The translations under genes were made by a program, and so were the position numbers. Source: an uncultured Candidatus Saccharibacteria bacterium (GTDB lineage: Bacteria > Patescibacteriota > Minisyncoccia > Phycocordibacterales > EsbW-18). Taken from it: a stretch of DNA of 64,000 nucleotides. The stretch lies in assembly GCA_964447415.1 (NCBI GenBank), contig CAYUSN010000001.1, positions 185,727 to 249,726 on the forward strand. The letters run 5' to 3'. The notes under the pieces were generated by a model. The model was not told the DNA's origin, ran no database searches, and was given only the letters and a program-made list of their open reading frames with translations. Positions 2,800 to 28,616 of the stretch are shown here, in pieces. The first letter of the stretch is position 1. The number at the start of each line of letters is the position of its first letter.

Positions 2800-3060
2800 A
2801 TGTTCCAAACCATCCTGTTGTGGGTAGGTGGGCTCGGCATCGGCATCTTCGCGTGGCTTCTGATGGAGCTGTACACCCCAGACTGGGTTTCCGACCGTGT
2901 GCTCGCAATCATCGCGGTCATCGTCTGGGTCGTGGTGGTGTGGTTCCAGCAGACCTCGGGAGCTCCACTCGGCGGATTCCTCGTGGTCTCCGGCATCTGC
3001 TGGTTCCTCGACCTGCTCGCGGGACTTTCGATATTTGTCATCGTCGGGGGCGATGACTAA
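2800..3060 (+). CDS. Small integral membrane protein (2-3 TM), hypothetical
   Basis: 86-aa ORF, GGAGGGA SD 6 nt upstream of ATG, hydrophobic segments; followed by hairpin terminator 3078-3113. Confidence 0.45.
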   Translation: MFQTILLWVGGLGIGIFAWLLMELYTPDWVSDRVLAIIAVIVWVVVVWFQQTSGAPLGGFLVVSGICWFLDLLAGLSIFVIVGGDD

Positions 3061-7347: not shown

Positions 7348-7352
7348 ATATG

Positions 7353-7424
7353 TGGGCATGCTAGGATTCGAACCTAGAACCGGCCGTGTATAAGACGGCT
7401 GCTCTACCGTTGAGCTACATGCCC
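7353..7424 (-). tRNA. tRNA with anticodon UAU (AUA-decoding isoleucine-type tRNA)
   Basis: Manual fold of reverse strand: acceptor GGGCATG/CATGCCC, D-arm GCTC-AACGGTA-GAGC, anticodon stem GCCGT/ACGGC with loop CTTATAC (U33-UAU-A37), T-arm CTAGG-TTCGAAT-CCTAG, discriminator A; CCA not encoded. Confidence 0.65.
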
Positions 7425-12570: not shown

Positions 12571-12672
12571 ACGTCCATTGTACCTCAGGGGTGTGAAGTA
12601 TTTCTTGTTTGACGAACCGTTTATCAGAGCGTACCCTCGTTTTTGGAGATGTACCTGACAAGGAGGATTCTT

Positions 12673-12780
12673 ATGCAACAACTGCTTCAGGCAAGTGCTG
12701 TGTTCGGCATCATTGCGCTCATCATCTGGGGGATGTGGAGGGTCACATTCCTCGGTTTCCGAGAAGGAGGACAACGATGA
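12673..12780 (+). CDS. Putative 35-aa membrane peptide (MQQLLQASAVFGIIALIIWGMWRVTFLGFREGGQR)
   Basis: Manual translation; AAGGAGGA SD 7 nt upstream; stop overlaps downstream ATG (ATGA); GC-rich codon usage. Confidence 0.3.
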   Translation: MQQLLQASAVFGIIALIIWGMWRVTFLGFREGGQR

Positions 12781-13007
12781 GGGTTTATGAAGAGAAGGGG
12801 GTGCGTCTCACGTACGTGCCGATGGCGGTCGCGGCAGCGACGCTCATCGCCGCCGGATGGGTCGGATTTCTCGTGCTGCGTAAGACGAGATTCCGCCGTG
12901 CCGCCCGCGTCGCACGGAAAGTGGAGGTCGCGGGCCAGAGAGTGCTCAACCTCGCGGAGCACCCTGATGTGCGGCCGATGTTCTCCGAGGACGAGACCGC
13001 CGCGTGA
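12777..13007 (+). CDS. Small single-TM protein (76 aa), hypothetical
   Basis: AGGAGGA SD; start MRVYEEKG within ORF 12609..13007; TM segment AVAAATLIAAGWVGFLVL; coupled to upstream micro-ORF. Confidence 0.35.
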   Translation: MRVYEEKGVRLTYVPMAVAAATLIAAGWVGFLVLRKTRFRRAARVARKVEVAGQRVLNLAEHPDVRPMFSEDETAA

Positions 13008-13236
13008 CGCCTCGCTCCGCCGTTTTCCCGCCGGGGGCCTTGTGCCGCCGGCGGTGCTTTATATATTGGCGTTTTTGCTGTCCACCGACTTTCCCCAACG
13101 GCGCAGAAACGGCTTGACAGAGGCGTTTTCACGAATATAATGAGTGCTCCTACAGTGATCAGCAACCCCGTTCCGGTTTTGCTGGGACGGGGTAAAAAAT
13201 TGCGGTAGGGGATGCACGTTGATAATCACATAATTC

Positions 13237-13331
13237 ATCCAGCACTCAATTTGGCACTGTTGTCATGTCGAACGAATGACGCACAACAGTGAATCTACAA
13301 CGAAGAGATAGTGCCAAATTGAGTGCTGGAT
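13237..13331. promoter_or_regulatory. Palindromic element C: 21-bp perfect inverted arms (atccagcactcaatttggcac / gtgccaaattgagtgctggat) flanking 53 nt, upstream of the 16S rRNA gene
   Basis: Read directly; followed by three further strong hairpins (13345-13460) in the rRNA leader region. Confidence 0.5.
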
Positions 13332-13543
13332 AAAAAAGTCGTGCGATGGCCACCGCTGTCGCACGCACAATCAGAGTTAACCGGATAGCAGCCGGAGCAC
13401 TCTGATTAACCCGTCTATGAGAGACAGACCGTAGTACAGTCTGTCTCATCCAAGACAAAATTAAGAACGGAGAAAAAAGCTAATCACATTTTTTCTTTTG
13501 TTCTGCTCAACTAAGTGAAGCATTTATGTTTCACTTTATATGT

Positions 13544-15196
<1,653 letters not shown>

Positions 15197-15365
15197 AGTC
15201 AAATGACAATCGGTATTTGTCTCTCAAGGACAATACTCTAGGCGGTCGATATCGTGCACTGCAATTGAGTGCATGATGGATGCGGCACAGCATCCTTAAA
15301 ACCGTGCCGGGCATCCGGGAAAGACCGGAAAAATGAGCAGAACAAAAGAAAGAACGTGATATAAA

Positions 15366-15398
15366 AACCGCCCCGCGCCTAACGCGCGGGGCGGTTTT
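15366..15398. terminator. Bidirectional intrinsic terminator (aaaaaccgccccgcgcctaacgcgcggggcggtttt)
   Basis: Perfect GC-rich stem flanked by A-run and T-run between 16S and the convergent gene. Confidence 0.7.
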
Positions 15399-15406
15399 GC
15401 GTTCTC

Positions 15407-16573
15407 TTAGAGTTCGTCGAGCGCGTCTTCGGCAAGTTCCTCCGCCTCTTGTGCCAGGTCAATCGCTTCGTCGTAATCTTCATCGTCGAACGCATCCCAC
15501 GCGTCGGCAACCAAGTCCTCCGCCTCATCAAGCAGGTCTTCAGCGTCGGATGTGTCGCCGTTTGTGTCATCAACCTCATCCCAGGCATCATCAATTGCGT
15601 CTTCCGCGTCGGCAATTGCGTCTTCCGCGTCTCCCTCATCCCCCCTTCGGTGGCTTCTCGGATTTATTTCATCAACGGCCTCGTCCGCGAGATCCTGTGC
15701 TTCTTCCGCAAGATCAATCGCATCGTCATAGTTGCCGTCATCAAACTCATCCCATGCTTCATCAAGCAGATCTTGTGCTTCATCAAGTAGATCCTGTGCG
15801 TCATCAACATCATCACCGTCATCTTCCGCGTCGTCTATTTCATCTTGCGCATCATCAATCGCATCTTCTGCTTCGTCCAGCGCATCCTCTGCCTCTTCAT
15901 CGCCACCGCCGAGATCATCGATAATATCCTGTGCGTCATCAAGCGCACGCTCTCCCTTTTTGAGTGCCTCTTCGTAATCCTCTTCGATAAACGCGTACAG
16001 AGCGTCGAGCAGACGTTCTTTGGCGTCATCAAGGTCATTCTCAAAGCTTGAGGTGGTTTCACCGTTGTCTTGTGCGTCTTCTATCTCGTCCTCCGCATCA
16101 TCGATTGCATTAATTGCATCTTGCAGAATATTCCGTGCGTCCTCTTCATCGGATGAGTTATTGTCATCATCGTCATCATCACTGTCATCATCATCAGAAT
16201 CCGTCTGCGGCGGAGCAATTACCGGTGTAGGCGCCGCGCCGCTCATGAGTTCAAGATATTTTCTCTGTGATACGGGTCCGAAATATCCTGTCGCCGGCAT
16301 AATGCCGTTCACGGTCTGCCATGCCGCAACCGCAATTTGTGTTTTTTCACGGAAGAGCGATGTTTCTTGCCCCGGCGCGCCGGGACCATCCTGTGCAATC
16401 GTGATGCCCGCTGAGTTGAGGTACCTCTGCAGACAACGGATGTCTTCTCCTTGCATGCCGAGCTCCAAGTCGCGGTCAAAGGTGCACGAAACGACCGCCT
16501 GTGCAGACGGAGCAAATGACAAAAACGCTGCAGTGATAATACCCGCTAGCAATAGTGTTGTGTGTGTGCGCAT
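15407..16573 (-). CDS. Secreted peptidoglycan-binding-domain protein with long acidic Asp/Glu/Ala repeat C-terminal region
   Basis: Signal peptide MRTHTTLLLAGIITAAFLSFAPSAQA; PG_binding_1-like segment (LELGMQGEDIRCLQRYLNSAG...TGYFGPVSQRKYLEL); ~250 aa of repeats such as DDAQDLLDEAEDLVADAWDEFDD; start moved to MRTHTT. Confidence 0.6.
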   Translation of the reverse strand: MRTHTTLLLAGIITAAFLSFAPSAQAVVSCTFDRDLELGMQGEDIRCLQRYLNSAGITIAQDGPGAPGQETSLFREKTQIAVAAWQTVNGIMPATGYFGPVSQRKYLELMSGAAPTPVIAPPQTDSDDDDSDDDDDDNNSSDEEDARNILQDAINAIDDAEDEIEDAQDNGETTSSFENDLDDAKERLLDALYAFIEEDYEEALKKGERALDDAQDIIDDLGGGDEEAEDALDEAEDAIDDAQDEIDDAEDDGDDVDDAQDLLDEAQDLLDEAWDEFDDGNYDDAIDLAEEAQDLADEAVDEINPRSHRRGDEGDAEDAIADAEDAIDDAWDEVDDTNGDTSDAEDLLDEAEDLVADAWDAFDDEDYDEAIDLAQEAEELAEDALDEL

Positions 16574-16772
16574 AGCAAAAAAGTTATGTGGTAAATGACC
16601 TGATTGTTCCTGCACAAAGAGGAATGTAATCGGTGCTTACAGTATATCAAGTGGCTCGTCATGCTGAGGTGCCGGGCGGGGGATAATGAGCGCCCGCAAA
16701 GGTATTGGAAACCACATTCTTGACAAATTCATATAATATGATGTATACTGTACATCAGAAAAGGAGGTTGCC

Positions 16773-17024
16773 ATGAAGGCCACGGTGTCGAACTATGGTC
16801 TGATGTACAGTCCGACGGTGATGGGTGGGCTCGTCTCACTCGAACCGTTCGAGGTCATCGCCAAGGCGGTCGGACCGTGCAACTGCGGGTTCGAGGAACC
16901 CGACAGTCCGCGGATGGGGCACGCATCAAGCTGTCCAACGCAGTACGCGATGATCGAGGTGCAGGGGCACACGATCGTGGTGTACCTGCCCAACATCGAA
17001 ATCATGGAGGAGGTGACCGCATGA
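16773..17024 (+). CDS. Hypothetical small protein (83 aa, Cys/His-containing), GC-rich ORFan
   Basis: Strong AAAAGGAGG SD; stop overlaps downstream ATG (ATGA). Confidence 0.4.
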   Translation: MKATVSNYGLMYSPTVMGGLVSLEPFEVIAKAVGPCNCGFEEPDSPRMGHASSCPTQYAMIEVQGHTIVVYLPNIEIMEEVTA

Positions 17025-17272
17025 CTCGACAGTACTACCGCCCGCAGGAGCTGCCGCGGCAGAAGGTCGTGCAGCGCGAGAGGAACCAGATGAACACGGC
17101 TTCGGTGGTGTGCGCGGTTCTTGCACTCATCTTCACGATGGGCGCGGCGTCCGAATACACCACCACCGTCGCGGCGGTCGCTTGCGTTCTCCTGGCCCTG
17201 GTCTTCGGGGTCGGGGCGTGGCTTCTCTCCACCCGTTGCGGATTTCGCATCCGCATCGAGCGCGACCGCTGA
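17021..17272 (+). CDS. Small 2-TM membrane protein (83 aa), hypothetical
   Basis: Start at ATG overlapping upstream stop; two hydrophobic helices (VVCAVLALIFTMGAA, VACVLLALVFGVGAWLL). Confidence 0.4.
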   Translation: MTRQYYRPQELPRQKVVQRERNQMNTASVVCAVLALIFTMGAASEYTTTVAAVACVLLALVFGVGAWLLSTRCGFRIRIERDR

Positions 17273-17381
17273 CAGTGCTTCGCCGGTTCAAGCCCGGCAA
17301 CGACAGTCGTTTCCTTCGGGGGGCGGCTGTTTTTCTTTATTGAGAAAAACCGGCAATTTTGGTATAGTCCACGTTGCAAAC

Positions 17382-17455
17382 GCGCGTGTAGCTCAGCTGG
17401 TTAGAGCACGTCACTGATAATGACGAGGCCGAAGGTTCGAGTCCTTCCACGCGCA
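17382..17455 (+). tRNA. tRNA-Ile (anticodon GAU)
   Basis: Cloverleaf: GCGCGTG/CACGCGC acceptor, D-arm GCTC-AGCTGGTTA-GAGC, anticodon loop CTGATAA, T-arm GAAGG-TTCGAGT-CCTTC, discriminator A. Confidence 0.85.
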
Positions 17456-17479
17456 CAAAACGAAGTTTGAGTATAAGAA

Positions 17480-17510
17480 AACGGGCGACCTTTTGAGGGG
17501 TCGCCCGTGA
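17480..17510. terminator. Bidirectional intrinsic terminator (aaaacgggcgaccttttgaggggtcgcccgtgaaa)
   Basis: 8-bp GC stem with flanking A/T runs between tRNA-Ile and convergent gene. Confidence 0.6.
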
Positions 17511-17530
17511 AATCAACTGCGATTCACTGC

Positions 17531-18790
17531 TTACGGAGCCGTTGCGCTCCAGATGCCGGTGTCTCCGAGTTCGAAGCCGTCGGCGAAGATGCGTCCGATG
17601 CCGTGGATGTACCCGGCACCTGCATCGACCCCGTCGATATCCGAGTAAGGGGCGCCGCCGGCGAAGTTGCCACCGTAGGCTGCCGACGACCAACCGTTGC
17701 GGTAGTCGGTGTCAACGTCGGCAGGAATGATTTCCTGCGCGAACGACCACGGGTTCGTGGCTTCCTGCAGGAAAAGCATCCATCTGCCGGCGTTGTTCGT
17801 GCCGGGGATGTCGCGCCACGCCTCACCAACGAGTGCCTGGTGGGCATTGAGCGCGACGGACCATCCAAACTGCGCCCCTGCCTGCGGCACGGGTGCGGCG
17901 AGTGCTTGTTCCAGCGTCCAGCCGTTGCCATCCTGATGGATGACAACGCTGTAGGCGGCACCTCGACTGTCGTCGGGTTGCAATCCGGATTCTCCCGGGG
18001 CGCCGAGCAGGACACGTCGTCCGCTCGCGGAGACAGCGAAGCCGAGTTTGTAGGCGCCGTTGATGACGCCTTTGAAGCTCTGCCCCCACTGGTTCGTTCC
18101 TCCCAAGTTCTGCTTGAAGAGGAAGAACGAACCCATCCATGAGATGTTGCCGCTGTAGTCCAACGGAGCAGTGGCGACGAGCCACTGGTTTCCGATGAAC
18201 GCGAGACCGAAGCCCGCATACGAATCGGCCGGGTTAGCGATGTTGAGGAAGGTAAGCTTCTTACCTTCCCAGCCGCCGGCGGTGTCCCAGTAAACGTTCA
18301 CCTTCCCGTGCGGGAAGGCGCCACAGGCGGCGCTGGTGCCGCTCTTGGAGACCGCGACCGACTGGCCGCTTTCGTCACCTGCGACGGCGTGCGCATCTTC
18401 CAGTGCGGCATCGAAGGTGTAGTCTCCGTCGCTGCCGTTGAAGACGTAGCACCGGCCGGCGTTCGCGCCGAGCGTGTCGTCGTAGGGCGCGCCCACGATG
18501 AGGCGCGCGCAATCCGGAGACACGGCGAGCGCTTCGCCGAAGCGAGCACCGCCTTGGGCACCCGGATAGAAGACCTCGTCGATGAGGTCCGTGCCACGGT
18601 ATACCGCGACGGAACCGGAGGCGGCGTCGTACGGACGACCGACGAAGGACAGACCGTCGCACTTCGCGACGGACTTCCCGAAGTTCTCGCCCGGGAAGGG
18701 CGAGGGGTGCGGGAGCGCGGTGGGTTCCACCGCGCTCAGGGGCGCCGCGAGAATCGCGAGCGCCATGAAGGTCCAGCGGGCGATTCTCAT
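17531..18790 (-). CDS. Secreted FG-GAP repeat (integrin-alpha-like beta-propeller) protein
   Basis: Signal peptide MRIARWTFMALAILAAPLSA; repeated FG...SVA...G...D(L)IVGAP...G motifs (ENFGKSVA, ARFGEALAVSPDCARLIVGAPYDD, AQFGWSVAL...LVGEAWRD); start moved to MRIARW; high GC3. Confidence 0.6.
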   Translation of the reverse strand: MRIARWTFMALAILAAPLSAVEPTALPHPSPFPGENFGKSVAKCDGLSFVGRPYDAASGSVAVYRGTDLIDEVFYPGAQGGARFGEALAVSPDCARLIVGAPYDDTLGANAGRCYVFNGSDGDYTFDAALEDAHAVAGDESGQSVAVSKSGTSAACGAFPHGKVNVYWDTAGGWEGKKLTFLNIANPADSYAGFGLAFIGNQWLVATAPLDYSGNISWMGSFFLFKQNLGGTNQWGQSFKGVINGAYKLGFAVSASGRRVLLGAPGESGLQPDDSRGAAYSVVIHQDGNGWTLEQALAAPVPQAGAQFGWSVALNAHQALVGEAWRDIPGTNNAGRWMLFLQEATNPWSFAQEIIPADVDTDYRNGWSSAAYGGNFAGGAPYSDIDGVDAGAGYIHGIGRIFADGFELGDTGIWSATAP

Positions 18791-18965
18791 GGCGACTAAC
18801 TTCCTTTCTCCGTCTATCGACGGTGCCTGCATGAATCGTTATGAATCGTTGTTGATTGTAAATCTGCGTCTGGTAACATCCTATCAGAATAAACATGAAT
18901 TGTCAAGAGTTCTGAGCGGGAAAAAGGTACGTTTTTTAGGGCATATTTGGTACTATGCTCTTGTC

Positions 18966-19047
18966 GGGCACGTGGCGGAATTGGTATACGCGTACGCTTC
19001 AGGAGCGTATGTCGCAAGACTTGAGGGTTCGAGTCCCTCCGTGCCCA
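18966..19047 (+). tRNA. tRNA-Leu (anticodon CAG), type II with long variable arm
   Basis: GGGCACG/CGTGCCC acceptor, anticodon stem TACGC/GCGTA with loop TTCAGGA, 13-nt variable arm, T-arm GAGGG-TTCGAGT-CCCTC, discriminator A. Confidence 0.8.
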
Positions 19048-19048
19048 C

Positions 19049-20176
19049 ATGAGATCCCTTTTTCGATTTCTTCGCGCCAAACGCTTTGCCTACGAGCCGC
19101 TGGTAACGGTTGAGGTTTCACGCAAAAACATTCTAAAAAACCTTGAGATGTTTCTTGAGCATGTCTCGCCGTGGGGTGTTGCGCCGGTGCTGAAGGCAAA
19201 TGCATACGGACACGGACTTATTGAAGTCGCGCGTATTGTTGATGCACACGCACATGTGCCGTTTGTGGTGGTTGATTCGTACTATGAAGCACTCCGGCTT
19301 CGTAACGAGCACGTCACGTCGCCGATTCTCGTCATCGGACACACGCTCTCACACAACATCAAAAAAAACACGATGCATGGCATTTCGTTTTCCGTCGGAT
19401 CGCTGCACCAATTGAAAGAAATCGCGGAGACGAACGCGCCGGTGTCCGTACATCTGAAGTTTGACACCGGTATGCATCGGCAGGGAATTATGCCGAAAGA
19501 ACTTTCACGTGCGGTTGAAATTGTCGCGTCACACCCGCATCTGCATGTGGAAGGCATCTGCTCGCACCTTGCGGACGCCGACGGTGATGATGAGATACTG
19601 ACGACGGCGCAAATAAAACTCTGGAATGATATCGCATCGAAGTGGCGGAAGGCGTTTTCACAGACGAAGTATTTTCATCTGTCGGCGACCGCGGGCGTTC
19701 GACTTGCCGGAAAGATTGACGCGAATGTGGGAAGGCTCGGCATCGGACTGTACGGCATTTCAGATGTGATTCCCGGTCTTGCCCCCGCACTTTCTATGAA
19801 AACCTCCGTCACAGGATTGCGAACCATACAGAAGGGGGAGCGTGTCGGGTACGGTTTTTCATGGACGGCGGCGCGCGACACACGTGTGGCAACAATCCCT
19901 GTCGGCTACTACGAAGGTATTGACCGCCGGCTTTCAAACAAAGGGTTCGTGCGCGTGCGCGGAAAAGAGTGTCCGATTATCGGACGAGTATCGATGAACA
20001 TGACAACTGTTGATGTCACGGACGTACCCGATGTAAAAGAAGGAGACGGAGTGGAAGTCATAAGTACGAAATTCGAAGCACGAAATTCGATTACATACAT
20101 GGCGGAGCTGTGCGACACAATCCCGTACGATATTTTGGTGCACATTCCGTCTGCACTTCGACGCACGGTCATCTGA
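19049..20176 (+). CDS. alr: Alanine racemase
   Basis: PLP-lysine motif VLKANAYGHG near N-terminus and overall alanine racemase architecture (N-terminal TIM barrel, C-terminal beta domain with YxxG...M). Confidence 0.85.
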   Translation: MRSLFRFLRAKRFAYEPLVTVEVSRKNILKNLEMFLEHVSPWGVAPVLKANAYGHGLIEVARIVDAHAHVPFVVVDSYYEALRLRNEHVTSPILVIGHTLSHNIKKNTMHGISFSVGSLHQLKEIAETNAPVSVHLKFDTGMHRQGIMPKELSRAVEIVASHPHLHVEGICSHLADADGDDEILTTAQIKLWNDIASKWRKAFSQTKYFHLSATAGVRLAGKIDANVGRLGIGLYGISDVIPGLAPALSMKTSVTGLRTIQKGERVGYGFSWTAARDTRVATIPVGYYEGIDRRLSNKGFVRVRGKECPIIGRVSMNMTTVDVTDVPDVKEGDGVEVISTKFEARNSITYMAELCDTIPYDILVHIPSALRRTVI

Positions 20177-20279
20177 AATGCCAAGGAGTTGACAAACCAT
20201 TTTAAACTGATATAATACCCACCAGGAAATAGCGCATCGGTCGGATTCAACCGCCGATGAACAAGAGAGGGAGGTCAGT

Positions 20280-20657
20280 ATGACCGTCAAAAAGCAGGCT
20301 CCCGAAGAGACCCCCGCCACGCCCCAGACGGCGCCCGACGACAACAAGCGTTTCGAGATGTGCGGGTGCAACGGCAAGCCGCACGGGTACTACGTGCGGA
20401 GCAACGGGGAGAAGTTCCCGGCCGTCATCGTGTCGGTGCGCGCCGGCAAGTTCGTCCTCGACGGACCGGTCGAGGAGGGCGGCGGGCTCGTCAAGACCGA
20501 GGACAAGGCGCGCGCAGTCGCCCAGATGGAGGCCTCCGGTCTCCCGGCAGAGCGCGAGGACGACATCGAGGTGGCCGCGCAGAGCGCCGTCCATGCGCTG
20601 GCCTCCGAGGTGTTCCTGCTGGAGATCCTGGCGCAGGCGATGACCCGCAACAAGTAG
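20280..20657 (+). CDS. Hypothetical protein (GC-rich ORFan, 125 aa)
   Basis: GAGGGAGG SD; very high GC3 (aag/gag/gac/ggc codons); followed by intrinsic terminator ~20686-20720. Confidence 0.4.
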   Translation: MTVKKQAPEETPATPQTAPDDNKRFEMCGCNGKPHGYYVRSNGEKFPAVIVSVRAGKFVLDGPVEEGGGLVKTEDKARAVAQMEASGLPAEREDDIEVAAQSAVHALASEVFLLEILAQAMTRNK

Positions 20658-20755
20658 AACGCGCCGATAGACGTCCATCTGTCACCAAGCCCCCACGCGA
20701 AAGCGCGGGGGCTTCAATATTATATGGAAACAAAAAACACACGGAGTTGTCGTGA

Positions 20756-20802
20756 TATAACCCGCACTTACTTTTGGTACAAAAGTAAGTGCGGGTTATA
20801 GT
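20756..20802 (+). promoter_or_regulatory. Palindromic element F (tataacccgcacttactttt-ggtac-aaaagtaagtgcgggttata) embedded in sigma70-like promoter: -35 TTGGTA, 17-nt spacer = 3' arm, -10 TATAGT
   Basis: Perfect 20-bp inverted repeat; -10 ends ~9 nt before the murC ATG, implying a (near-)leaderless transcript. Confidence 0.5.
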
Positions 20803-20810
20803 TGGTATGT

Positions 20811-22097
20811 ATGGGAACACTCGACTTTGCACGGCACATTCACTTCATCGGCATCGGCGGAATCGGTGTCTCCGCGCTTGCCCGTTTGATGAAACACCAC
20901 GGGAAACATGTTTCCGGTTCCGACCGAGACATGACGCGGTTGACGCGTGAGCTTGAACGAGAAGGTATCCGTGTGCGTCCCGGACATGACGAACACCACG
21001 TGCCGCTGTTTGCTGATTTTATTGTGCATTCACCGGCGATTCCGTCTGATAATCCTGAACTGATGAAGGCGCGCGAACTCGGAATTCCCTCAATGTCGTA
21101 TCCCGAAGCGCTCGGCGCGGTGACACGTGACACGTTTACGGTTGCTGTATCGGGCACGCATGGAAAGACCACAACGACAGCAATGCTCGCTGAAGTTCTC
21201 AAGGAAAGTGTCAATCCGACGGTTATCGTGGGTTCACTGCTTTCCGGAGGCCGCAGTAACTTTGTCGCGGGTCATCCGAAGCGTTTTGTGGTGGAGGCGT
21301 GCGAATACAAACGCTCATTCCTCAACTTGCATCCTGACATTCTCGTCATCACCAATATTGATGAGGATCACCTCGACTACTACCGCGACTTGGAGGACAT
21401 CAAGAGCGCCTTTCGTGAGATGGTGCAAAAGGTTCCCGTATACGGCGCCGTTGTGTGTGACCTCTCCGACCCGAATATTGCAGATGTTGTGTCTGAGAGC
21501 CGCGCACCCATCATCAACTACATGGCGTTTTATGACGATGCGCGCAAACTCTCGGTATTTGGCGAGCACAATTTGCGCAACGCGGCCGCGGCGCACGCGG
21601 TTGCCGACTATTTCAATATTCCGGAGACAGAGGTAAACCGTGCACTCTTGAAATTTACCGGCACATGGCGCCGGAGTGAGTACAAAGGACGTACAACGCG
21701 TGGTGCAGACGTGTATGACGACTACGCGCATCACCCGAGAGAGATCCGCACGACACTCTCAGGTTTCAGAAAGCGATATCCCGATAAAAACCTGGTCGTC
21801 GCGTTTCAACCGCACCTCTATTCGCGCACAAAGACGCTCTTTGATGATTTTATCGACAGTTTTCACAACGCCGACCGGCTACTGCTCGCCCCGATTTACG
21901 CGGCACGCGAAGCGTATGACCCGACCATCTCGCACCACCAACTCGGTGATGCGATACGAGAGTATGGCGGCCGCGTTGAATCGTACGAAACACTGCACGC
22001 GCTGTCACACGAGCTCGCGCGCGGACTCACCCAGGATGACATTGTCATCACGATGGGTGCGGGTGATATCTACACAGTCGGCGAGAAACTTTTGTAA
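20811..22097 (+). CDS. murC: UDP-N-acetylmuramate--L-alanine ligase MurC
   Basis: IHFIGIGGIGVSALA N-terminal Rossmann motif, GTHGKTTTTAML P-loop, Mur ligase middle/C domains; ORF-track start at 20802 is TTG, first in-frame ATG (MGTLDF) used. Confidence 0.85.
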   Translation: MGTLDFARHIHFIGIGGIGVSALARLMKHHGKHVSGSDRDMTRLTRELEREGIRVRPGHDEHHVPLFADFIVHSPAIPSDNPELMKARELGIPSMSYPEALGAVTRDTFTVAVSGTHGKTTTTAMLAEVLKESVNPTVIVGSLLSGGRSNFVAGHPKRFVVEACEYKRSFLNLHPDILVITNIDEDHLDYYRDLEDIKSAFREMVQKVPVYGAVVCDLSDPNIADVVSESRAPIINYMAFYDDARKLSVFGEHNLRNAAAAHAVADYFNIPETEVNRALLKFTGTWRRSEYKGRTTRGADVYDDYAHHPREIRTTLSGFRKRYPDKNLVVAFQPHLYSRTKTLFDDFIDSFHNADRLLLAPIYAAREAYDPTISHHQLGDAIREYGGRVESYETLHALSHELARGLTQDDIVITMGAGDIYTVGEKLL

Positions 22098-22187
22098 ACG
22101 TATTGCAGGAAATACTTGACACCTCCTATTTTTTGGAGTATTTTCCTGACAGAGCTTGGTCTTCAAACAACGAAACGGAGGCAACAA

Positions 22188-22871
22188 ATGTTCGAGCATC
22201 TCCCGTCGTTCTACAGCGATTTGCATTGGAAGCGGACCGGTTTCTTCTCGAAGCTCCTGCTTTTCATCATGGCGGTTCTGAAGTTCGTGCCGGAGGCATT
22301 GCTCTTCGGCGCCATCTCGGCTCTCGTGTCGTTCTCGAGCACGACGTACAGCATCGCGGGGACGATGGACGCGAAGTTCAAGGAAGTGGGCGAGAGTGGT
22401 GGTATCCCGGCTTTCTCGGTGTGGTTCTGGGGTCCACTCATGATTGTGTGCGGGATTCTCGCATTCGTCTCTGCACTTGTTGTAGTGATTTTCAAGTCAT
22501 TCCTGACCGCGAATCAGTGCGACGTCGTATCGCGGATTCTGCAGAAGAGTCGGTTGCGCGCCCTTGCGACACTTGTTGTCCAGGAAGGCATCTGGCGAAA
22601 CCCACAGGAACACACGGAAGCGTTTCTACGCATCCGTGCCATCGTGATGAATTCCTACAAGGAAGCGGCGCTTCCTGCGCTTTATGAAATCGAAGCCAAG
22701 GCCAAGGATTTTTCCGACAGGAAGCAGATGGTTCGCGTCTACAAGCAGCTCGCCGAAGCGTACACCTCATACGGCGATGAGAGGAGCGCCCGTAGGACTC
22801 TCGGGTATGCGCGTGCTCTCGGTGAGGAGTTGGATCTCGATGATCAGTTGCTCAAGACATACGTCGTCTAA
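22188..22871 (+). CDS. Hypothetical membrane protein (2-3 TM) with C-terminal helical/TPR-like soluble region
   Basis: ACGGAGG SD before MFEHLPS; hydrophobic helices; high GC3; followed by terminator hairpin ~22885-22915. Confidence 0.45.
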   Translation: MFEHLPSFYSDLHWKRTGFFSKLLLFIMAVLKFVPEALLFGAISALVSFSSTTYSIAGTMDAKFKEVGESGGIPAFSVWFWGPLMIVCGILAFVSALVVVIFKSFLTANQCDVVSRILQKSRLRALATLVVQEGIWRNPQEHTEAFLRIRAIVMNSYKEAALPALYEIEAKAKDFSDRKQMVRVYKQLAEAYTSYGDERSARRTLGYARALGEELDLDDQLLKTYVV

Positions 22872-22938
22872 CCTCCGTTCGTTTCGCGCCCCGCGAGGAT
22901 TCCTCGCGGGGCGTTTCGGTTTCATGTATAGTGCCCGT

Positions 22939-23634
22939 ATGACAAGTGAAATACTCGGAACGCTTTACGTGGTGGGAACGCCGATAGGCAACTTGGAAGA
23001 CGTGACGCTCCGCGCGTTGCGCATTTTGAAAGAGGCGGACGTTATTTTCTGCGAAGACACGCGCGTAACGAAGCGCCTGCTGGATAAGTACGACATTCAC
23101 ACACGCACGACATCTTTGAATGCGCGCACCGAACACGCAAAAATCGGCTCAGTGATGGGAGCACTAACTGAGGGGAAGAAGGTTGCGCTCGTCTCTGATG
23201 CAGGAACGCCGGGCGTATCGGACCCGGGCGGGCTCGTGGTGTCAGTCGTTCGGGAGAAAATGCCGGATGTTCGCATTGAAGTTATTCCCGGTCCTTCGGC
23301 GCTCACTGCAGCGCTCTCCATTGCAAGCGTGCCCGTTGCGGATTTTGTGTTCTTAGGGTTTTTGCCGCACAAAAAAGGACGCCAAACACTCTTCAAAGAG
23401 ATTGCGGAGAGTAAGCGCGCGATGATTTTCTATGAATCACCGCACCGCATTATGAAGACACTCGCCTCGCTTAGAGATGTGTTAGAAGACGACAGAATCG
23501 TCGGTATCGCACGCGAACTAACGAAAATTTACGAAGAAATCGTCCGCGGCAGCGCCACAGAGGTGCTTTCATACTTCGAAACGAACAAGGAAAAACAGAA
23601 GGGGGAGTTTGTGGTGATTGTCTCCGGAAAATAA
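22939..23634 (+). CDS. rsmI: 16S rRNA (cytidine1402-2'-O)-methyltransferase RsmI (tetrapyrrole methylase fold)
   Basis: GTLYVVGTPIGNLEDVTLRALRIL...DVIFCEDTR...ESPHR motifs; start at MTSEILG (alternative MYSARM at 22924). Confidence 0.8.
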   Translation: MTSEILGTLYVVGTPIGNLEDVTLRALRILKEADVIFCEDTRVTKRLLDKYDIHTRTTSLNARTEHAKIGSVMGALTEGKKVALVSDAGTPGVSDPGGLVVSVVREKMPDVRIEVIPGPSALTAALSIASVPVADFVFLGFLPHKKGRQTLFKEIAESKRAMIFYESPHRIMKTLASLRDVLEDDRIVGIARELTKIYEEIVRGSATEVLSYFETNKEKQKGEFVVIVSGK

Positions 23635-23702
23635 AGAGAGGCAGGCTTTTTTGCCCTGTTTTGCACTACCATGCCCGCATAATTCGTGCGATACTACTGC
23701 GC

Positions 23703-23903
23703 ATGCAGAAGGCACAGACACGCATAATTATCATCACCGGAGCGGCACTCGCACTCTTGCAGGTACTCGGTATTCCGCTGTCATGGAAGTTGTGGCTTTC
23801 TTCTGCAATCGGGTTATTTTTTATCGGATGGGGGCTGTACCTCCGATACGGCCGCAGAACAGCGCATGACCAACCGCATGACGACACACACATCACACAA
23901 TAA
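23703..23903 (+). CDS. Small 2-TM membrane protein, hypothetical
   Basis: Within ORF 23661..23903; hydrophobic helices IIIITGAALALLQVLGI and SSAIGLFFIGWGLYL; start uncertain. Confidence 0.3.
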   Translation: MQKAQTRIIIITGAALALLQVLGIPLSWKLWLSSAIGLFFIGWGLYLRYGRRTAHDQPHDDTHITQ

Positions 23904-25236
23904 AAAACGTTTTTCAATTTCACCTGTTTTTTTATGGGTGTCGTTGGGTGCAGTAGTGGTTTTGTTTCTCGGTTATTTTGTCGGTCCGTCAATTTTTTCC
24001 CACACCTATACGCAGACCGAAGTCACCGCTGAGGTACTCGCCGAAGAAATAGAAGAAGAAGACGTTCCGTCTGTCACACACCTTCCGACACCTGCCGCAG
24101 TTAAGGCAATTTACATGTCGCAGTGCGTCGCGGGGACGCCTTCGTTTCGCGACAAACTTATCACGCTCATTGATGACACGGAATTAAACGCGGTCATCAT
24201 CGACATAAAAGATTTCTCCGGAAAAATCGGATTTACCACCGATAATCCGGCACTTGCGCCGTCGGTGTCGGATGCGTGCGGTGCGCGTGATATGAAGGAA
24301 TTTATAAAACGGCTTCACGACAAAAATATTTACGTTATCGGACGTATCACGGTATTCCAAGATCCGTTTTACTCGAAACTGCACCCTGAATTGGCGGTGA
24401 AAAAAGAAAGCGATACGTCGGTGGTATGGACCGATCACAAAGGACTTTCGTTTATTGATGTCGGGGCGCGGGCGTTTTGGGACTACATCGTGGAACTTTC
24501 CCGCGAATCGTACGCAATCGGATTCGATGAACTCAATTACGATTACGTGCGCTATCCGTCTGACGGCAACATGAAAGACATCGCCTTCACGCTCTCGGAA
24601 GGAAAACCGAAGGACGTCGAGTTGGAAGCATTTTTCTCGTATTTGTACGAGGCGCTTGATACGGGCGAGACGCCGACGTCGGGACTGCGCTCCGTTCGCA
24701 ACATGTTTAAGGGAGGGTCGGCCCGTCCCGTGCTGTCCGTTGATTTATTCGGCTACACCACGACAAATTATGACGATCTCGGCATCGGGCAGCTGCTTGA
24801 ACGCGCGCTTCCGTATTTCGATTACGTCATGCCGATGGTGTATCCGTCGCACTACAACTCGGGATTCATCGGTATCGCCAAACCGGCGACACAACCATAT
24901 GAGGTGGTGAAATATTCCATGGACGCCTCAGTTCGTCGCGTGCGGGCGCTCGCAGATGCAAAAAACTCCACCGCAACCTCAACGGATATGGTGTTTTTGC
25001 GGGAACAGGCAAACAAAGGACACGGCAATATTCACGTACAGCAGATGCGCCCGTGGCTGCAGGATTTTGATTTAGGAGCACAGTACACGCCGGAGATGGT
25101 GCGTGCGCAAATTCAAGCAACATATGACGCAGGGCTCACCTCATGGGCGCTGTGGGATGCAGGTAACACGTACACTCGTGCGGCGCTCGCAAACGAAGAG
25201 GAACCGCTTTCTTCTTTGACACCGGTTTCGCGATAG
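23866..25236 (+). CDS. Membrane-anchored putative glycoside hydrolase (TIM-barrel, DUF4015-like family)
   Basis: N-terminal TM anchor; conserved blocks NAVIIDIKD, IYVIGRITVFQDP, FDELNYDYVRYP, VMPMVYPSHY typical of the uncharacterised GH-like family. Confidence 0.5.
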   Translation: MTNRMTTHTSHNKKRFSISPVFLWVSLGAVVVLFLGYFVGPSIFSHTYTQTEVTAEVLAEEIEEEDVPSVTHLPTPAAVKAIYMSQCVAGTPSFRDKLITLIDDTELNAVIIDIKDFSGKIGFTTDNPALAPSVSDACGARDMKEFIKRLHDKNIYVIGRITVFQDPFYSKLHPELAVKKESDTSVVWTDHKGLSFIDVGARAFWDYIVELSRESYAIGFDELNYDYVRYPSDGNMKDIAFTLSEGKPKDVELEAFFSYLYEALDTGETPTSGLRSVRNMFKGGSARPVLSVDLFGYTTTNYDDLGIGQLLERALPYFDYVMPMVYPSHYNSGFIGIAKPATQPYEVVKYSMDASVRRVRALADAKNSTATSTDMVFLREQANKGHGNIHVQQMRPWLQDFDLGAQYTPEMVRAQIQATYDAGLTSWALWDAGNTYTRAALANEEEPLSSLTPVSR

Positions 25237-25296
25237 GGCACTGTGGTGTCAGATCATACAAAACCGTAGTTCAAACCGATGAGATCGGAGGAAACA

Positions 25297-25557
25297 ATGA
25301 TCGTCGTTTCGATTGAGCAGTACCGTGACTGTCAGAACAACCGTGCGTACGCACTCTCGTTACTGGAGGATCCCATCAGGATCTCCTTGTTGACGACGGG
25401 TTCCTGGGAGTCTCCGGCGGGATTGCCTGCCGACGTGCTCAGTTTCATCGCCGCTTCATATCGAGAGCGGGGGTGGAAGGTGACGTGGAAGAACGGCTCC
25501 AAGCGCATCCGCATCTGGCACCAGGAGAAGGTGTGCGTTACGCGCGCGAAGCGCTAA
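25297..25557 (+). CDS. Hypothetical small protein (86 aa), GC-rich ORFan
   Basis: GGAGGA SD 6 nt before ATG (MIVVSIEQ); within ORF 25279..25557. Confidence 0.35.
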   Translation: MIVVSIEQYRDCQNNRAYALSLLEDPIRISLLTTGSWESPAGLPADVLSFIAASYRERGWKVTWKNGSKRIRIWHQEKVCVTRAKR

Positions 25558-25766
25558 GGGTCGCGCTGAGCGGCGCGGGGTTTCTGTTTGCGCCGCTGCT
25601 GATCGTCACCGTCGCATGGTTTCTGTACGCACTATCCGTTGCGCTCGTCGCCGGTCTTACCGACACATCAGCAATGCTCTGGAAAGAGGCGCTTGGTCTC
25701 AAGGTTGTCTGGGTTATTGTCGCAGTGCGCGGACACCACAGGCTCAGGGCCGGGTGCCAAGAGTGA
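25473..25766 (+). CDS. Small 2-TM membrane protein, hypothetical (start uncertain; may begin at GTG ~25532)
   Basis: Overlaps 3' end of upstream gene in another frame; hydrophobic helices FLFAPLLIVTVAWFLYALSVALVAGL and VVWVIVAV. Confidence 0.3.
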   Translation: MEGDVEERLQAHPHLAPGEGVRYAREALRVALSGAGFLFAPLLIVTVAWFLYALSVALVAGLTDTSAMLWKEALGLKVVWVIVAVRGHHRLRAGCQE

Positions 25767-25904
25767 CCCCCGTTCTTTTCCAAGCCGTTCCTTCGGGGGC
25801 GGCTTGTTTATTACACAAACATTGACACCTTGCCTTTTTCGGTTTGAAAGAGTAAGGTGTTTTCCGGACAGGGTCTTTTTATATCTATACACGGAAAGGG
25901 GGTG

Positions 25905-26366
25905 ATGCCTCTGTCTGCTGTGCTGGTCACCAAACATGCCGTCGAGCGGTATGAGTACTGGCGCGACCTGCGGCATGAATACCTCGGCGAACAGCCGATT
26001 TCCTCCGTTCTGTCGTCAGAGGAGCAGATCGCTCTCATGACACTGCTCGCAGAGGAGTCGTCGGACATACCCGACCATGTCGTTCGCTGCCGGAAAGATC
26101 GGCACAATGGTGTGGATGTTCTGTATCTTGAGAACGACACGTACCGCATCGTGTGCCACTCAAACGGTTCTGTAGTGACTGTGTTTACGGTAGAACCGAA
26201 CACAGCGCACCACGACCCGCGTAGGTGGGCCGGTGTACCGCCGGCGCTAGCGCACACGGTGACCCATACGTGGCCGATCTACGTGCTGACGGGCGGCATC
26301 ATCAAAGTCGGGCGCAGGAGGCGTCCGACAAATGGAGCGCAACCCAAGGAGGAGGCACGGTGTTAG
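25905..26366 (+). CDS. Hypothetical protein (153 aa), GC-rich ORFan
   Basis: AAAGGGGG SD before MPLSAVL; within ORF 25857..26366. Confidence 0.4.
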   Translation: MPLSAVLVTKHAVERYEYWRDLRHEYLGEQPISSVLSSEEQIALMTLLAEESSDIPDHVVRCRKDRHNGVDVLYLENDTYRIVCHSNGSVVTVFTVEPNTAHHDPRRWAGVPPALAHTVTHTWPIYVLTGGIIKVGRRRRPTNGAQPKEEARC

Positions 26367-26668
26367 ACACCGACAACAAGTTTGCCGCAGTAGAGAAGGG
26401 TGATGTCGTGTTCCTGCAGGTAAGTCACAAGGACGGTAATGTGACCGCCTGCATGGAGCGCAACGGTTCGGTGCTGTACTGGGCGCACGAAACACCGGTA
26501 AGCATCGTGCGCACGGGCACAGAGACGTTCAAGGGCATCATGTGCCCGGAGGAGCTCAAGCGGGCGCTGATGTTCGTCGCACGTGCGTTCAACCTGCGCG
26601 GCGTCGAACCTCACGAGCCACCCGAAGCATTCAAGAAGACGGGGTGGGTCGCATTCCGGTTCGTCTGA
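26360..26668 (+). CDS. Hypothetical protein (102 aa), GC-rich ORFan, GTG start
   Basis: AGGAGGAGG SD then GTG overlapping upstream stop; followed by strong terminator (gcgccgggcaggtctgtag-ttt-acagaccggcccggcgcttttt, ~26690-26735). Confidence 0.4.
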   Translation: MLDTDNKFAAVEKGDVVFLQVSHKDGNVTACMERNGSVLYWAHETPVSIVRTGTETFKGIMCPEELKRALMFVARAFNLRGVEPHEPPEAFKKTGWVAFRFV

Positions 26669-26810: not shown

Positions 26811-28616
26811 ATGTCTCTTTACGATCCAAATCGCATCACGTACATCGGCGAGACCGATTACCGCAATAAGCGCGTGAAATTCGGCATCAAGGCGAAGGAT
26901 CGTCCGCGCCACATCTACGCCATCGGAAAGACCGGAACCGGTAAGTCAACGCTCTTGGAGAATATGGCGGTGCAGGATATTCAAAATGGCGAAGGGTTTG
27001 CATTTATCGACCCGCACGGAAAGTCGGCAGATTTGCTTCTCGACTACATTCCCAAAGAACGCGTTGACGACGTACTCTATTTTGCGCCGTTTGATCTGGC
27101 AAACCCGGTGTCGTTTAACGTTATGGAAGACGTCGGTCCTGATAAACGACATCTTGTTGCCGCAGGACTTATGTCGGCGTTCAAAAAAATCTGGGTGGAC
27201 GCGTGGAGCGCCCGCATGGAATACATCCTCAACAACACCATCCTTGCACTTCTTGAATATCCCGACTCCACCCTCTTGGGCGTGAACCGCATGCTTGTGG
27301 ACAAGGAGTACCGCAAAGATGTCGTTGCGCACGTCACCGATCCGGGCGTGAAAGCCTTCTGGGAGGGAGAGTTTGCCAACTACACAGACCGATTTGCGCA
27401 GGACGCGACGCCGGCGATTCAAAACAAGGTTGGGCAATTCACCGCAAACCCCGTTATCCGCAACATCATCGGACAGCCGAAGTCCACGTTCAACATCCGT
27501 GAAATCATGGACCAGAAAAAGATTCTCATCATCAACCTCTCAAAAGGGCAGGTGGGGGAAGATAGCGCCAACCTTTTGGGTTCCATGCTTATCACAAAAA
27601 TTTATCTGGCGGCAATGTCACGCGCCGACTTGCGCGAACAGGAACTCGGCAAGCTGCCGAACTTCTATCTCTATGTGGACGAATTTCAGTCATTCGCGAA
27701 CGAATCGTTTGCCGACATTTTGTCTGAAGCGCGAAAATACAAACTGAATCTCACGATTGCGCACCAATACATCGAGCAGATGAGCGATGAAGTGCGCGCG
27801 GCGGTGTTCGGCAACGTCGGCACGATGGTGTCGTACCGCGTCGGCGCCATTGACGCGGAGTATTTGGAAAAAGAATTTGCGCCGGCGTTTACCGCCGAAG
27901 ATCTCGTGAACATCGGCGCCTTTAAGATGTACCTGAAACTTATGATAGACGGCATGGCGTCAGCGCCGTTTTCTGCAAGCGGACTGCCGCCGATTAAACC
28001 GCCTTCGGTTTCGTACCGCGACGTGGTCATTGCCCATTCTCGCGCTCAGTTTTCCCGACCGCGCGCCGTGGTCGAAAATGAAATTCTTAAATGGCACCAG
28101 AAAGAATTCGGCAAAGGAGGCGGCGGGCGCAGCGACGAGTCGGAGCGCGCACGTCACGGGGGCCGCAGGGAAGATGCGCCGAGAGGCGAGCGGCCACGCG
28201 AGCAGAGGTCGGAACCTCGAAAAGATGATCGAAGAGCGGGCCAGAGGAACGATCGGAGAGAGGAAAAGCCTGCAGTTGACCGCGAGACACAACTTCGTCA
28301 GGCGGTGTCGCTTTCAAGTCTTAGACACAGCGATACCCCCCACAAACACAGACATAAAAGCGTGAAAAAAGACAAAGGACCGTCGCAGGCGCACCTTTCG
28401 GATTTGCGCTCGGCGCTTTCGGCGGTGTTGGGCGATGTGGCACAGACGGTTCCGATGCCGGAACCTCAAAAAACAGCTCCCGCGCCGCAGCAAAAACAGG
28501 AGCCGAAGAACGCACCGCAGGCAACCCAGGAACCGCAGGCAAAAAAACAGCACAAAGAAGTTCCCGAGCACGTACTCAAAGAACTCTTCAAACGCGAGGA
28601 AAAAAACGAAGGGTAA
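26811..28616 (+). CDS. FtsK/HerA/TraG-VirD4-superfamily P-loop ATPase (type-IV coupling-protein-like) with long basic disordered C-terminal tail
   Basis: Walker A AIGKTGTGKST, Walker B LYVDEFQSF, no N-terminal TM; C-terminal ~170 aa rich in R/E/K/Q/P; start moved to MSLYDPN (ORF-track start overlaps upstream terminator). Confidence 0.55.
   Translation: MSLYDPNRITYIGETDYRNKRVKFGIKAKDRPRHIYAIGKTGTGKSTLLENMAVQDIQNGEGFAFIDPHGKSADLLLDYIPKERVDDVLYFAPFDLANPVSFNVMEDVGPDKRHLVAAGLMSAFKKIWVDAWSARMEYILNNTILALLEYPDSTLLGVNRMLVDKEYRKDVVAHVTDPGVKAFWEGEFANYTDRFAQDATPAIQNKVGQFTANPVIRNIIGQPKSTFNIREIMDQKKILIINLSKGQVGEDSANLLGSMLITKIYLAAMSRADLREQELGKLPNFYLYVDEFQSFANESFADILSEARKYKLNLTIAHQYIEQMSDEVRAAVFGNVGTMVSYRVGAIDAEYLEKEFAPAFTAEDLVNIGAFKMYLKLMIDGMASAPFSASGLPPIKPPSVSYRDVVIAHSRAQFSRPRAVVENEILKWHQKEFGKGGGGRSDESERARHGGRREDAPRGERPREQRSEPRKDDRRAGQRNDRREEKPAVDRETQLRQAVSLSSLRHSDTPHKHRHKSVKKDKGPSQAHLSDLRSALSAVLGDVAQTVPMPEPQKTAPAPQQKQEPKNAPQATQEPQAKKQHKEVPEHVLKELFKREEKNEG

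Follow-up and report, generated by a model that had tools for sequence, protein, structure and literature searches.

Three small-protein gene pairs in a patescibacterial genome: probably unrelated, lineage-restricted operons with candidate membrane anchors

A 64,000-nucleotide stretch of the genome of an uncultured Candidatus Saccharibacteria bacterium (contig CAYUSN010000001.1; the window, below) contains three pairs of small, overlapping open reading frames (ORFs), all on the plus strand, in which the second member encodes a small transmembrane (TM) protein: pair 1 (1a, 12673-12780, and 1b, 12777-13007), pair 2 (2a, 16773-17024, and 2b, 17021-17272) and pair 3 (3a, 25297-25557, and 3b, 25533-25766). 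We conclude, at a probability of about 0.6, that the three loci are unrelated, lineage-restricted and vertically maintained small-protein operons of a Paceibacteria-type patescibacterium, with 2b and 3b as candidate membrane anchors. A preliminary description of this DNA had proposed a single undescribed type of cassette, resembling toxin/immunity or holin/antiholin pairs or membrane-tethered small regulators.

Relationships among the pairs and status of the ORFs

That the pairs are not obviously similar to each other had already been remarked upon, and profile comparison agrees: no homology was detected among them, the hhalign probabilities for 3a against 2a and for 3b against 2b being below 1%. 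Gene overlaps are common in the window, where 14 of the 42 co-directional neighbours overlap, 5 of these by ATGA, so that start/stop overlap is not distinctive for the three pairs; with overlap so common and the pairs lacking mutual homology, the notion of a single cassette type is not supported. Their shared look, namely a Shine-Dalgarno (SD) site, overlap, a small TM protein and a high GC content at third codon positions (GC3), would mirror what is usual in this genome and in its lineage-specific genes. The terminators of the pairs are alike only as ordinary UUCG-loop hairpins, of which the window has one more at 50562; single small ORFs that are GC3-rich and preceded by SD sites also occur at 2800-3060, 20280-20657 and 59281-59562; and a repeat search revealed no direct or inverted repeats flanking the three loci.

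All six families are narrow. For the six proteins and the neighbouring small ORFs, Pfam and NCBIfam gave no match above their curated cut-offs, and nothing meaningful came from PHROGs or PADLOC. Word-indexed homologue searches with 2a, 3a and 1b returned the query itself or one or two close relatives only; metagenome scans with the 3a and 1b alignments, a scan of viral contigs with 3a, searches of phage records with 2a, 3a and the pair-2 DNA, BLAST against plasmid records and PDB sequence searches with four family profiles all gave no match.

All six small ORFs are nevertheless real genes. They are present, with their SD sites, where they had been described, except that 3b starts at 25533 rather than 25532. 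In the related Patescibacteria (Paceibacteria-type) loci, which we denote by L-numbers and among which L026, from Ca. Campbellbacteria AMX-MBFR-44, is fully syntenic with the window, homologues occupy syntenic positions, with nonsynonymous divergence (pN) well below synonymous divergence (pS), for all ORFs but 2b, and the start/stop overlap is retained; pairs 1 and 3 and gene 2a diverge roughly at the rate of the neighbouring genes. Conservation in relatives, on which the preliminary description had staked its case, was thus found for 1a, 1b, 2a, 3a and 3b and not for 2b, and the same two-gene architecture recurs for pair 1 in L026, L090, L091 and L081, for pair 3 in L026, L077 and L004, and for pair 2 in L005, there with a dissimilar 2-TM gene. 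When scored by a codon model fitted to the long ORFs of the window, five of the six are the best of all frames (for 2b, the reverse frame is slightly higher), and all six outscore most of their own alternative frames. Small pairs combining an SD site, an ATGA junction and a TM protein number two in the window, whereas 100 simulated order-3 Markov sequences contained 0.02 on average, and the genes are called by independent pipelines.

Very few database relatives, and the omission of 1a from the NCBI annotation, are what one would expect if the small ORFs were annotation noise. This explanation retains next to no probability: it is already refuted for 1a, 1b, 2a, 3a and 3b, and against it stand the syntenic conservation with pN well below pS, the conserved start/stop junctions, the SD sites, the GC signal at third codon positions, the best in-frame codon score of five of the six ORFs and a confident structural model of 2a. 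The gene status of 2b rests on its codon signal, its SD site and the analogous partner genes in relatives. Because the downstream SD site lies inside the upstream ORF and the ORFs overlap (by 4, 4 and 25 nt in pairs 1, 2 and 3, respectively), we infer that the two products of each pair would be made together by translational coupling.

Candidate membrane anchors and the VirD4-like ATPase cluster

Pair 2 encodes 2a, an 83-aa soluble protein, and 2b, an 83-aa 2-TM hairpin; the two genes are joined by an ATGA junction and preceded by the SD sites AAAGGAGG and GGAGGAGG, with a promoter-like site upstream (16720-16749, plus strand; TTGACA-18-TATACT, 11/12 matches) and a terminator-like hairpin with a UUCG loop downstream (17302-17331, plus strand). 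An exhaustive HMMER search of 1.84 billion proteins identified only 5 representative relatives of 2a, and four residues, C36, C38, H50 and C54, are invariant in the 6 aligned sequences. The AlphaFold2 (AF2) model of 2a (predicted local distance difference test, pLDDT, 86.8; predicted TM-score, pTM, 0.74) consists of a small beta-rich domain and two N-terminal helices and has no fold neighbour at E < 0.05 in PDB or among viral structures (BFVD). The protein founds a rare family of ~80-aa CxC...H...C proteins and is probably metal-binding; it may belong with the small zinc-ribbon or zinc-knuckle proteins. In 2b, the TM segments, which here as elsewhere were derived from hydropathy, span residues 26-44 and 50-68; the terminal charges are +4 and +3, and that of the loop is -1. 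Given the positively charged termini and the short loop, the predicted topology is N-in/C-in, which fits the tethering of a cytosolic domain. No sequence homologue of 2b was detectable in any search made.

The assignment of 2b comes from comparison with relatives. A hidden Markov model (HMM) search of all related loci examined detected a further member of the 2a family in L026, just after tRNA-Ile, and this member is part of one 157-aa ORF (L026 6111-6584) in which residues 6-83 match the 2a profile (hhalign probability 96.9%, E 1.5e-10) and residues 98-141 form a 2-TM hairpin (TM 98-116 and 123-141); the fusion ORF was also assembled from two other read sets. L005 carries, just downstream of the 16S rRNA gene, a 2a homologue that is 59-60% identical (dN/dS = 0.19) and is followed by an ATGA-overlapping 83-aa 2-TM gene. 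The 2-TM hairpin after the 2a domain accordingly comes in three forms, as an overlapping gene in the window, as another overlapping gene in L005 and within the same polypeptide in L026; a membrane protein follows the 2a homologues in 5 of the 6 informative contexts. In the window and in L005, 2a is extended by a C-terminal tail whose coding sequence contains the SD site of the partner gene. Since the 2a domain and a 2-TM hairpin share one ORF in L026, 2b is probably a separately encoded membrane anchor of 2a: the cytosolic 2a domain would be tethered to the membrane by the 2b hairpin, and pair 2 would represent the split form of a membrane-anchored small protein.

Several observations speak against so simple a history. 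Behind the 2a homologues of L083/L084 and L085, at a distance of 100-140 nt, come membrane proteins that are larger and unrelated; two other 2a homologues have no partner in the DNA available; and the TM part of the L026 fusion, the 2-TM gene of L005 and 2b show no detectable sequence similarity to one another. The anchor of 2a may therefore have been replaced rather than inherited.

In pair 3, 3a is an 86-aa soluble protein with the motifs DCQNN ... GWKVTWKNGSK, and 3b, which has a GTG start, is a 77-aa 2-TM protein with the pattern ALSGxGFLFxPL ... R-x-x-R-x-GC; the genes overlap by 25 nt, their starts at 25297 and 25533 are supported by alignment with relatives, and a terminator-like hairpin with a UUCG loop follows (25781-25806, plus strand). 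No promoter match was found for this pair, which lies 60 nt behind a DUF4015 gene and so may be the tail of a DUF4015 operon. The slot is always after DUF4015. Both genes are present as a pair in L026, L077 and L004, where 3a is 53-57%, 64-69% and 25% identical, respectively; homologues of 3b are found in these three and in L003, and the L003-type lineage has 3b alone, without 3a, as checked in 6 of the 24 contigs, derived from many samples, that carry that protein. The dN/dS is about 0.3 for 3a and likewise for 3b; the AF2 model of 3a has a pLDDT of 68.8 and no fold match. The absence of 3a from the L003 lineage marks it as an accessory rather than an obligate partner, and it would be a dispensable, cytosolic one.

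Downstream of pair 3, two conserved small genes (25905-26366 and 26360-26668, plus strand), with no family match in Pfam, NCBIfam, PHROGs or PADLOC, precede the gene for a 601-aa VirD4/TrwB-like coupling ATPase (26811-28616, plus strand) that scores 26.8 bits against TrwB_AAD_bind (cut-off 20.5) and 21.4 bits against T4SS-DNA_transf (cut-off 20.1); the L005 orthologue scores higher and carries the NCBI name of a type IV secretion system (T4SS) conjugative DNA transfer family protein. Homologues of the 25905-26366 gene are present in L026, L002, L003 and L005, and those of the 26360-26668 gene only in L002 and L003; two further candidates for homology to the latter family, 3a and a 94-aa ORF of L006, were rejected on comparison. 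The order of the cluster is DUF4015, (3a), 3b, the two small genes and the VirD4-like ATPase, and 3b belongs to it at 5 of the 7 related loci (the window, L026, L004, the L003-type contigs and L005); L077 carries pair 3 on a contig that ends before the ATPase. No TM segment is predicted in the ATPase, and the gene is without a transmembrane domain (TMD) in all seven loci holding it (TMD-less orthologues were confirmed in L026, L002, L003, L004 and L006), bar an in-frame 3b-like extension in L005. There, a 3b-like 2-TM domain (hhalign probability 94%, E 1e-7, 63 columns; BLASTP E 2e-6), 62% identical to the L026 3b over the first 21 residues, lies directly upstream of the ATPase, in frame and with no stop codon between; it is preceded by an ATGA-overlapping 82-aa ORF with weak similarity to 3a, and the 720-aa ORF comprising the 3b-like domain and the ATPase is called on 3 contigs. 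This arrangement is suggestive.

Canonical type IV coupling proteins (T4CPs) have an N-terminal TMD that is essential for function in most of them, and a T4CP subfamily described as lacking the TMD pairs with small membrane proteins, as in TraJ/TraI of pIP501 (PMC7434980). In Patescibacteria, where orphan genes of the VirD4-like type are common, 5,713 VirD4 homologues have been counted, only 148 of them near virB4, and their role was left open (PMC12102498). From the conserved neighbourhood, it is plausible that 3b is a trans-acting membrane anchor of the TMD-less VirD4-like ATPase; it would supply in trans the anchor that the ATPase lacks, as proposed for TraI/TraJ.

A number of facts weigh on the other side. 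PGAP annotates the L005 ATPase as a 626-aa protein from an internal Met, and the L005 linker still has a TATACT box and a terminator-like hairpin, as has the DNA that precedes the ATPase gene in the window, so that the in-frame continuity could be due to a lost stop codon, which we regard as improbable. No 3b was found in the examined DNA of L002 and L006 despite their ATPase clusters; the Pfam T4CP profiles show no match between their N-terminal part and either 3b or the N-terminus of the L005 protein; and, in the window, 3b is not adjacent to the ATPase, two genes and a terminator lying in between. Of the earlier suggestion of membrane-tethered small proteins, then, the part concerning pair 2 is supported by the L026 fusion, and that concerning pair 3 is made plausible by the ATPase cluster.

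Pair 1 differs in its composition. Hydropathy predicts one TM segment in each protein, so that this pair is TM+TM, and the originally described combination of a small protein with a TM protein applies to pairs 2 and 3 only. The 35-aa single-pass microprotein 1a and the 76-aa 1b, each with an AAGGAGG SD site, meet in an ATGA junction. In 1b, a short N-terminus and one TM are followed by a basic cytoplasmic helix, with a net charge of +8 over the 16 residues after the TM, and an acidic C-terminal end with an invariant DETAA; in the alignment, the C-terminal part keeps the invariant pattern TRFRR...AR.VE..G.R...DETAA. Homologues of 1a, 33-35 aa in length and with a TM segment, occupy the same position in L081/L082, L091, L090 and L026, and those of 1b (L026, L090, L091, L081) are 42-84% identical; the 1a-1b junction in relatives is ATGA or TGATG, and the pair lies in L026, L090, L091 and L081/L082 between recG and the 16S promoter. 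The dN/dS is 0.10 for 1a (compared with L091) and 0.08-0.15 for 1b (compared with L090/L091), the latter being about 0.1, like that of Alr. A promoter-like site, TTGACG-17 nt-TACCCT, can be read from the sequence at 12609-12637 (plus strand) and was not reported by the consensus promoter scan; the layout TTGAC[CG]-17-TA[TC][TC]CT is also found 5' of the pair-1 homologues in L090 and L091. A terminator-like hairpin (13042-13067, plus strand) follows the pair, and then the 16S promoter at 13114-13141. Judging from conservation and topology, the two single-pass microproteins 1a and 1b probably form a small hetero-oligomeric complex in the membrane.

The genomes of Patescibacteria are small yet full of tiny hypothetical membrane proteins that lack a placement. 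For the present ones, the comparison attributes the look-alike architecture to a genome-wide habit, not to a new mobile cassette, and offers two testable assignments: a rare CxC...H...C family tethered to the membrane by a separate hairpin gene or by fusion, and a candidate trans-acting anchor for a TMD-less, orphan VirD4-like ATPase. If the latter idea is true, it shows where this ATPase works and with which partners. One can go further and suppose that anchors in this clade are separate, translationally coupled mini-genes that were repeatedly split from and fused to their soluble partners, and that 3b is the detached TMD of the ATPase, forming with 3a and the products of the 25905-26668 genes a T4SS-independent membrane machine. 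We consider this extension speculative and rather unlikely; if true, it would provide a handle on the function of thousands of orphan T4CP-like genes in Patescibacteria.

GC excess, origin and alternative functions

The three loci had been described as GC-rich, and this holds, with a GC content of 58-65% compared to about 52% in core genes, the exception being 1a at 53%. It is the third codon positions that carry the excess, with a GC3 of 0.68-0.83 (0.56 in 1a), compared to 0.56 +/- 0.07 for 30 long ORFs. The relatives show the same trend, with GC3 of 0.60-0.80 in the pair-2 operon of L005 as against 0.36 in Alr, and of 0.63-0.82 in the small genes of L026, L090, L091 and L077 as against 0.56-0.63 in their neighbours. 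Synonymous sites are saturated between these lineages, and given that the excess persists in the relatives, recent import is a poor explanation. High expression was considered as the cause and is unlikely, GC3 being 0.53 in GAPDH and 0.60 in FtsH. Because recombination is active in the region, possible causes are biased gene conversion or an exchange inside a common accessory pool. Other lineage-specific or accessory genes of the window also have a GC3 of 0.77-0.85 (488-1513 and 17531-18832, minus strand; 2800-3060, plus strand; 59281-59562, minus strand); in this order, they are the genes for a fatty-acid-hydroxylase-like membrane protein and an FG-GAP repeat protein, an 86-aa 3-TM ORF between tmRNA and FtsH, and a 93-aa ORF between GatB and GAPDH.

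The same compositional signal could reflect GC-rich islets acquired horizontally, that is, a mobile pool of small-gene cassettes that recombine into intergenic slots via conserved flanks (16S, tRNA and protein genes). Such a pool would account for the GC3 of 0.68-0.93 compared to 0.56 in core genes (and 0.60-0.80 compared to 0.36 for Alr in L005), for the different contents of the 16S-to-tRNA-Ile and Alr-to-MurC slots between lineages and for the signs of recombination nearby, namely tracts that are 92.9% identical to L026 as against about 70% and, in strain L080, a breakpoint located at the 3' end of the 20280 gene. It is unlikely all the same: each of pairs 1 and 3 has kept its slot in 4-5 lineages and diverges like its flanks, the high GC3 recurs in every lineage despite saturated synonymous sites, as expected of a gene-specific equilibrium and not of recent import, and no repeats, integrases or tRNA-target signatures accompany the pairs. 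Being about origin and not function, this explanation is also compatible with our favoured one, that of unrelated, vertically maintained operons.

Functional alternatives fare worse. The pairs could form one type of toxin-antitoxin or toxin-immunity cassette, GhoS/GhoT-like, in which the 2-TM protein damages the membrane and the upstream protein neutralises it. The order of a small soluble and an overlapping small 2-TM gene in pairs 2 and 3, the patchy occurrence of pair 2 and 3a among relatives and the anomalous GC3 all agree with this idea, which the preliminary description had named among others; the scans of Pfam and NCBIfam at curated cut-offs and of PADLOC lend it nothing, however, and pair 1 is TM+TM. 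Moreover, 3b occurs without 3a across the L003-type lineage, as checked in 6 of 24 contigs, where a toxin is not expected to outlive its antidote; 2a occurs without a 2-TM partner in several contexts, so that the genes are not obligately co-inherited, and in L026 it shares one polypeptide with a 2-TM hairpin, an unusual layout for a toxin-antitoxin pair. With fixed synteny, purifying selection near the rate of the neighbours and no mobile-element features in addition, we hold a toxin cassette to be improbable. Still less probable are remnants of a phage-derived holin/antiholin or lysis cassette, an idea suggested by the small size and the one or two TM segments of the proteins and by noise-level Pfam holin matches of 3b-family members (E 0.04-0.4, far below the cut-off). 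No PHROGs match exists for any of the six, the viral contig scan with 3a and the phage-record searches with 2a, 3a and the pair-2 DNA were empty, the surrounding genes are RecG, 16S, tRNA-Ile, DUF4015 and housekeeping genes, none of the neighbours examined is an endolysin, an integrase or another phage gene, and the positions have been kept between genomes whose synonymous divergence is saturated; the holin/antiholin comparison is accordingly disfavoured.

The anchors themselves could instead be small T4SS subunits, with 2b and/or 3b being VirB2-like pilins or VirB3/PrgI-like proteins. Size and the two hydrophobic helices would fit, 3b lies near a VirD4-like gene, 2b has a noise-level match to PrgI (E 0.2), and Patescibacteria have divergent arrays of VirB2-like pilins and many PrgI/VirB3 homologues (PMC12102498, PMC12857230). 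Nonetheless, Pfam scans at E <= 1 returned neither TrbC/VirB2 (PF04956) nor T4SS_pilin (PF18895); the proteins have two hydrophobic segments in total, with no extra signal peptide and with positively charged termini predicted to be cytoplasmic; no VirB4 match was found among roughly 30 larger ORFs of the window that were scanned; and 2a is cytosolic and fused N-terminally to the hairpin in L026. A role of this kind has a low probability, and we retain the view of 2b and 3b as candidate membrane anchors.

Genomic surroundings and known small systems

The window, part of a genome of the Parcubacteria/Paceibacteria type, contains tmRNA, three tRNAs and an unlinked 16S rRNA gene (13537-15204), with no 23S; in the closest species representatives, Alr is 63-88% identical. 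The gene order around the pairs is RecG (minus strand), pair 1, 16S, a 402-aa peptidoglycan-binding/acidic-repeat protein (minus strand), pair 2 and tRNA-Ile(GAT), followed by the FG-GAP protein (minus strand), tRNA-Leu, Alr, a 125-aa ORF, MurC, a 227-aa protein and RsmI, and then by an 80-aa TM protein, DUF4015, pair 3, the two small genes and the VirD4-like ATPase. The 80-aa TM ORF (23661-23903), which overlaps the start of the DUF4015 gene (23866-25236) by 38 nt and is kept in L026, L002 and L003, is another small membrane protein coupled to a neighbour, in this case a large one. The gene for a sigma factor of the extracytoplasmic function (ECF) type (7748-8290) overlaps that of a 456-aa DUF5667 protein (8283-9653) by 8 nt.

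Between the 16S rRNA gene and tRNA-Ile(GAT) lie the 402-aa gene on the minus strand and pair 2 (15205-17456). The 16S gene is about 135 nt longer than the Rfam model; positions 14678-14825 align to neither L026 nor L003, with AT-rich short repeats at 14756-14818, and at the equivalent of position 14313 the L026 gene carries another insertion, about 740 nt long. The small ORFs located just downstream of 16S vary by lineage: a 79-aa soluble ORF and a 52-aa 1-TM ORF in L026 (5266-5698), both called by gene finders in other assemblies, an 83-aa TM ORF in L003 (9285-9536), a 50-aa TM ORF in L002 (561-713) and, in L005 (640-1648), four small genes including 2a, three of which are chained by ATGA overlaps. 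The first small ORFs downstream of 16S in L005 and L026 are only marginally similar. Bacteria usually read AUA with a lysidine-modified CAU anticodon; ARAGORN predicts a tRNA-Ile with the anticodon TAT at 7352-7424 (minus strand).

The 2.8-kb stretch from MurC to RsmI (20831-23635) is 92.9% identical to L026 12979-15783, compared to about 70% in its flanks, and the protein encoded at 22116-22871 is 100% identical in L026, which indicates that the two lineages recently recombined or that DNA was transferred between them, or else that the assembly is chimeric. The 125-aa ORF between Alr and MurC (20280-20657, in the stretch 20189-20657; GC3 0.93) has a perfect promoter, TTGACA-16-TATAAT with an extended -10 TG. 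L001 and L003 lack this ORF, Alr and MurC being direct neighbours there, and L080 has in its place a 131-aa homologue of only 29% identity. The L080 DNA is 99.1% identical downstream and 81.7% identical on the Alr side, a jump that places a recombination breakpoint at the 3' end of the 20280 gene. The start of MurC is directly preceded by an inverted repeat (20756-20800) of two perfect 21-bp arms and a 3-nt spacer, which could be an operator or a terminator.

Among known systems, GhoS/GhoT, the type V toxin-antitoxin system of E. coli, is a bicistron of a ~100-aa soluble protein and a small 2-TM membrane protein, the same order as in pairs 2 and 3. It differs from them in that the Pfam and PADLOC scans returned no toxin-antitoxin family for the pairs, that 3b is found without 3a and 2a is fused to a hairpin in a relative, and that the pairs, which lie on the chromosome at syntenic positions, experience purifying selection of the ordinary kind. 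The VirB2-like pilin arrays and the PrgI/VirB3-like proteins of Patescibacteria (PMC12102498) resemble 2b and 3b in being small, fast-diverging proteins of the same phylum with two hydrophobic helices, whereas 2b and 3b are without a profile match or a signal peptide, are not arrayed and are not beside virB4. Another such system is TraJ/TraI of pIP501, where a VirD4-family ATPase without an N-terminal TMD is encoded near a small membrane protein proposed for its attachment; 3b is likened to this system by gene arrangement, not by sequence. The window differs in that neither VirB4 nor any further T4SS gene turned up near the ATPase, which makes the latter an orphan T4CP-like gene, and in that two small genes and a terminator intervene between 3b and the ATPase. 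With two TM helices and both termini predicted to be cytoplasmic, 3b also has the topology that canonical T4CPs such as TrwB show in their N-terminal domain. Finally, microproteins of the KdpF, CydX and AcrZ type are small membrane proteins that are translationally coupled in the operons of larger complexes. Like the pairs described here, they have 30-80 aa, one or two TM helices and overlapping or abutting partner genes, and they are often missed by annotation, as 1a is in the NCBI record; unlike them, the partner in pairs 1 and 2 is itself tiny, and the families are new and confined to one clade. The three pairs are new, narrow families of a known general kind, that of translationally coupled small membrane-protein operons.

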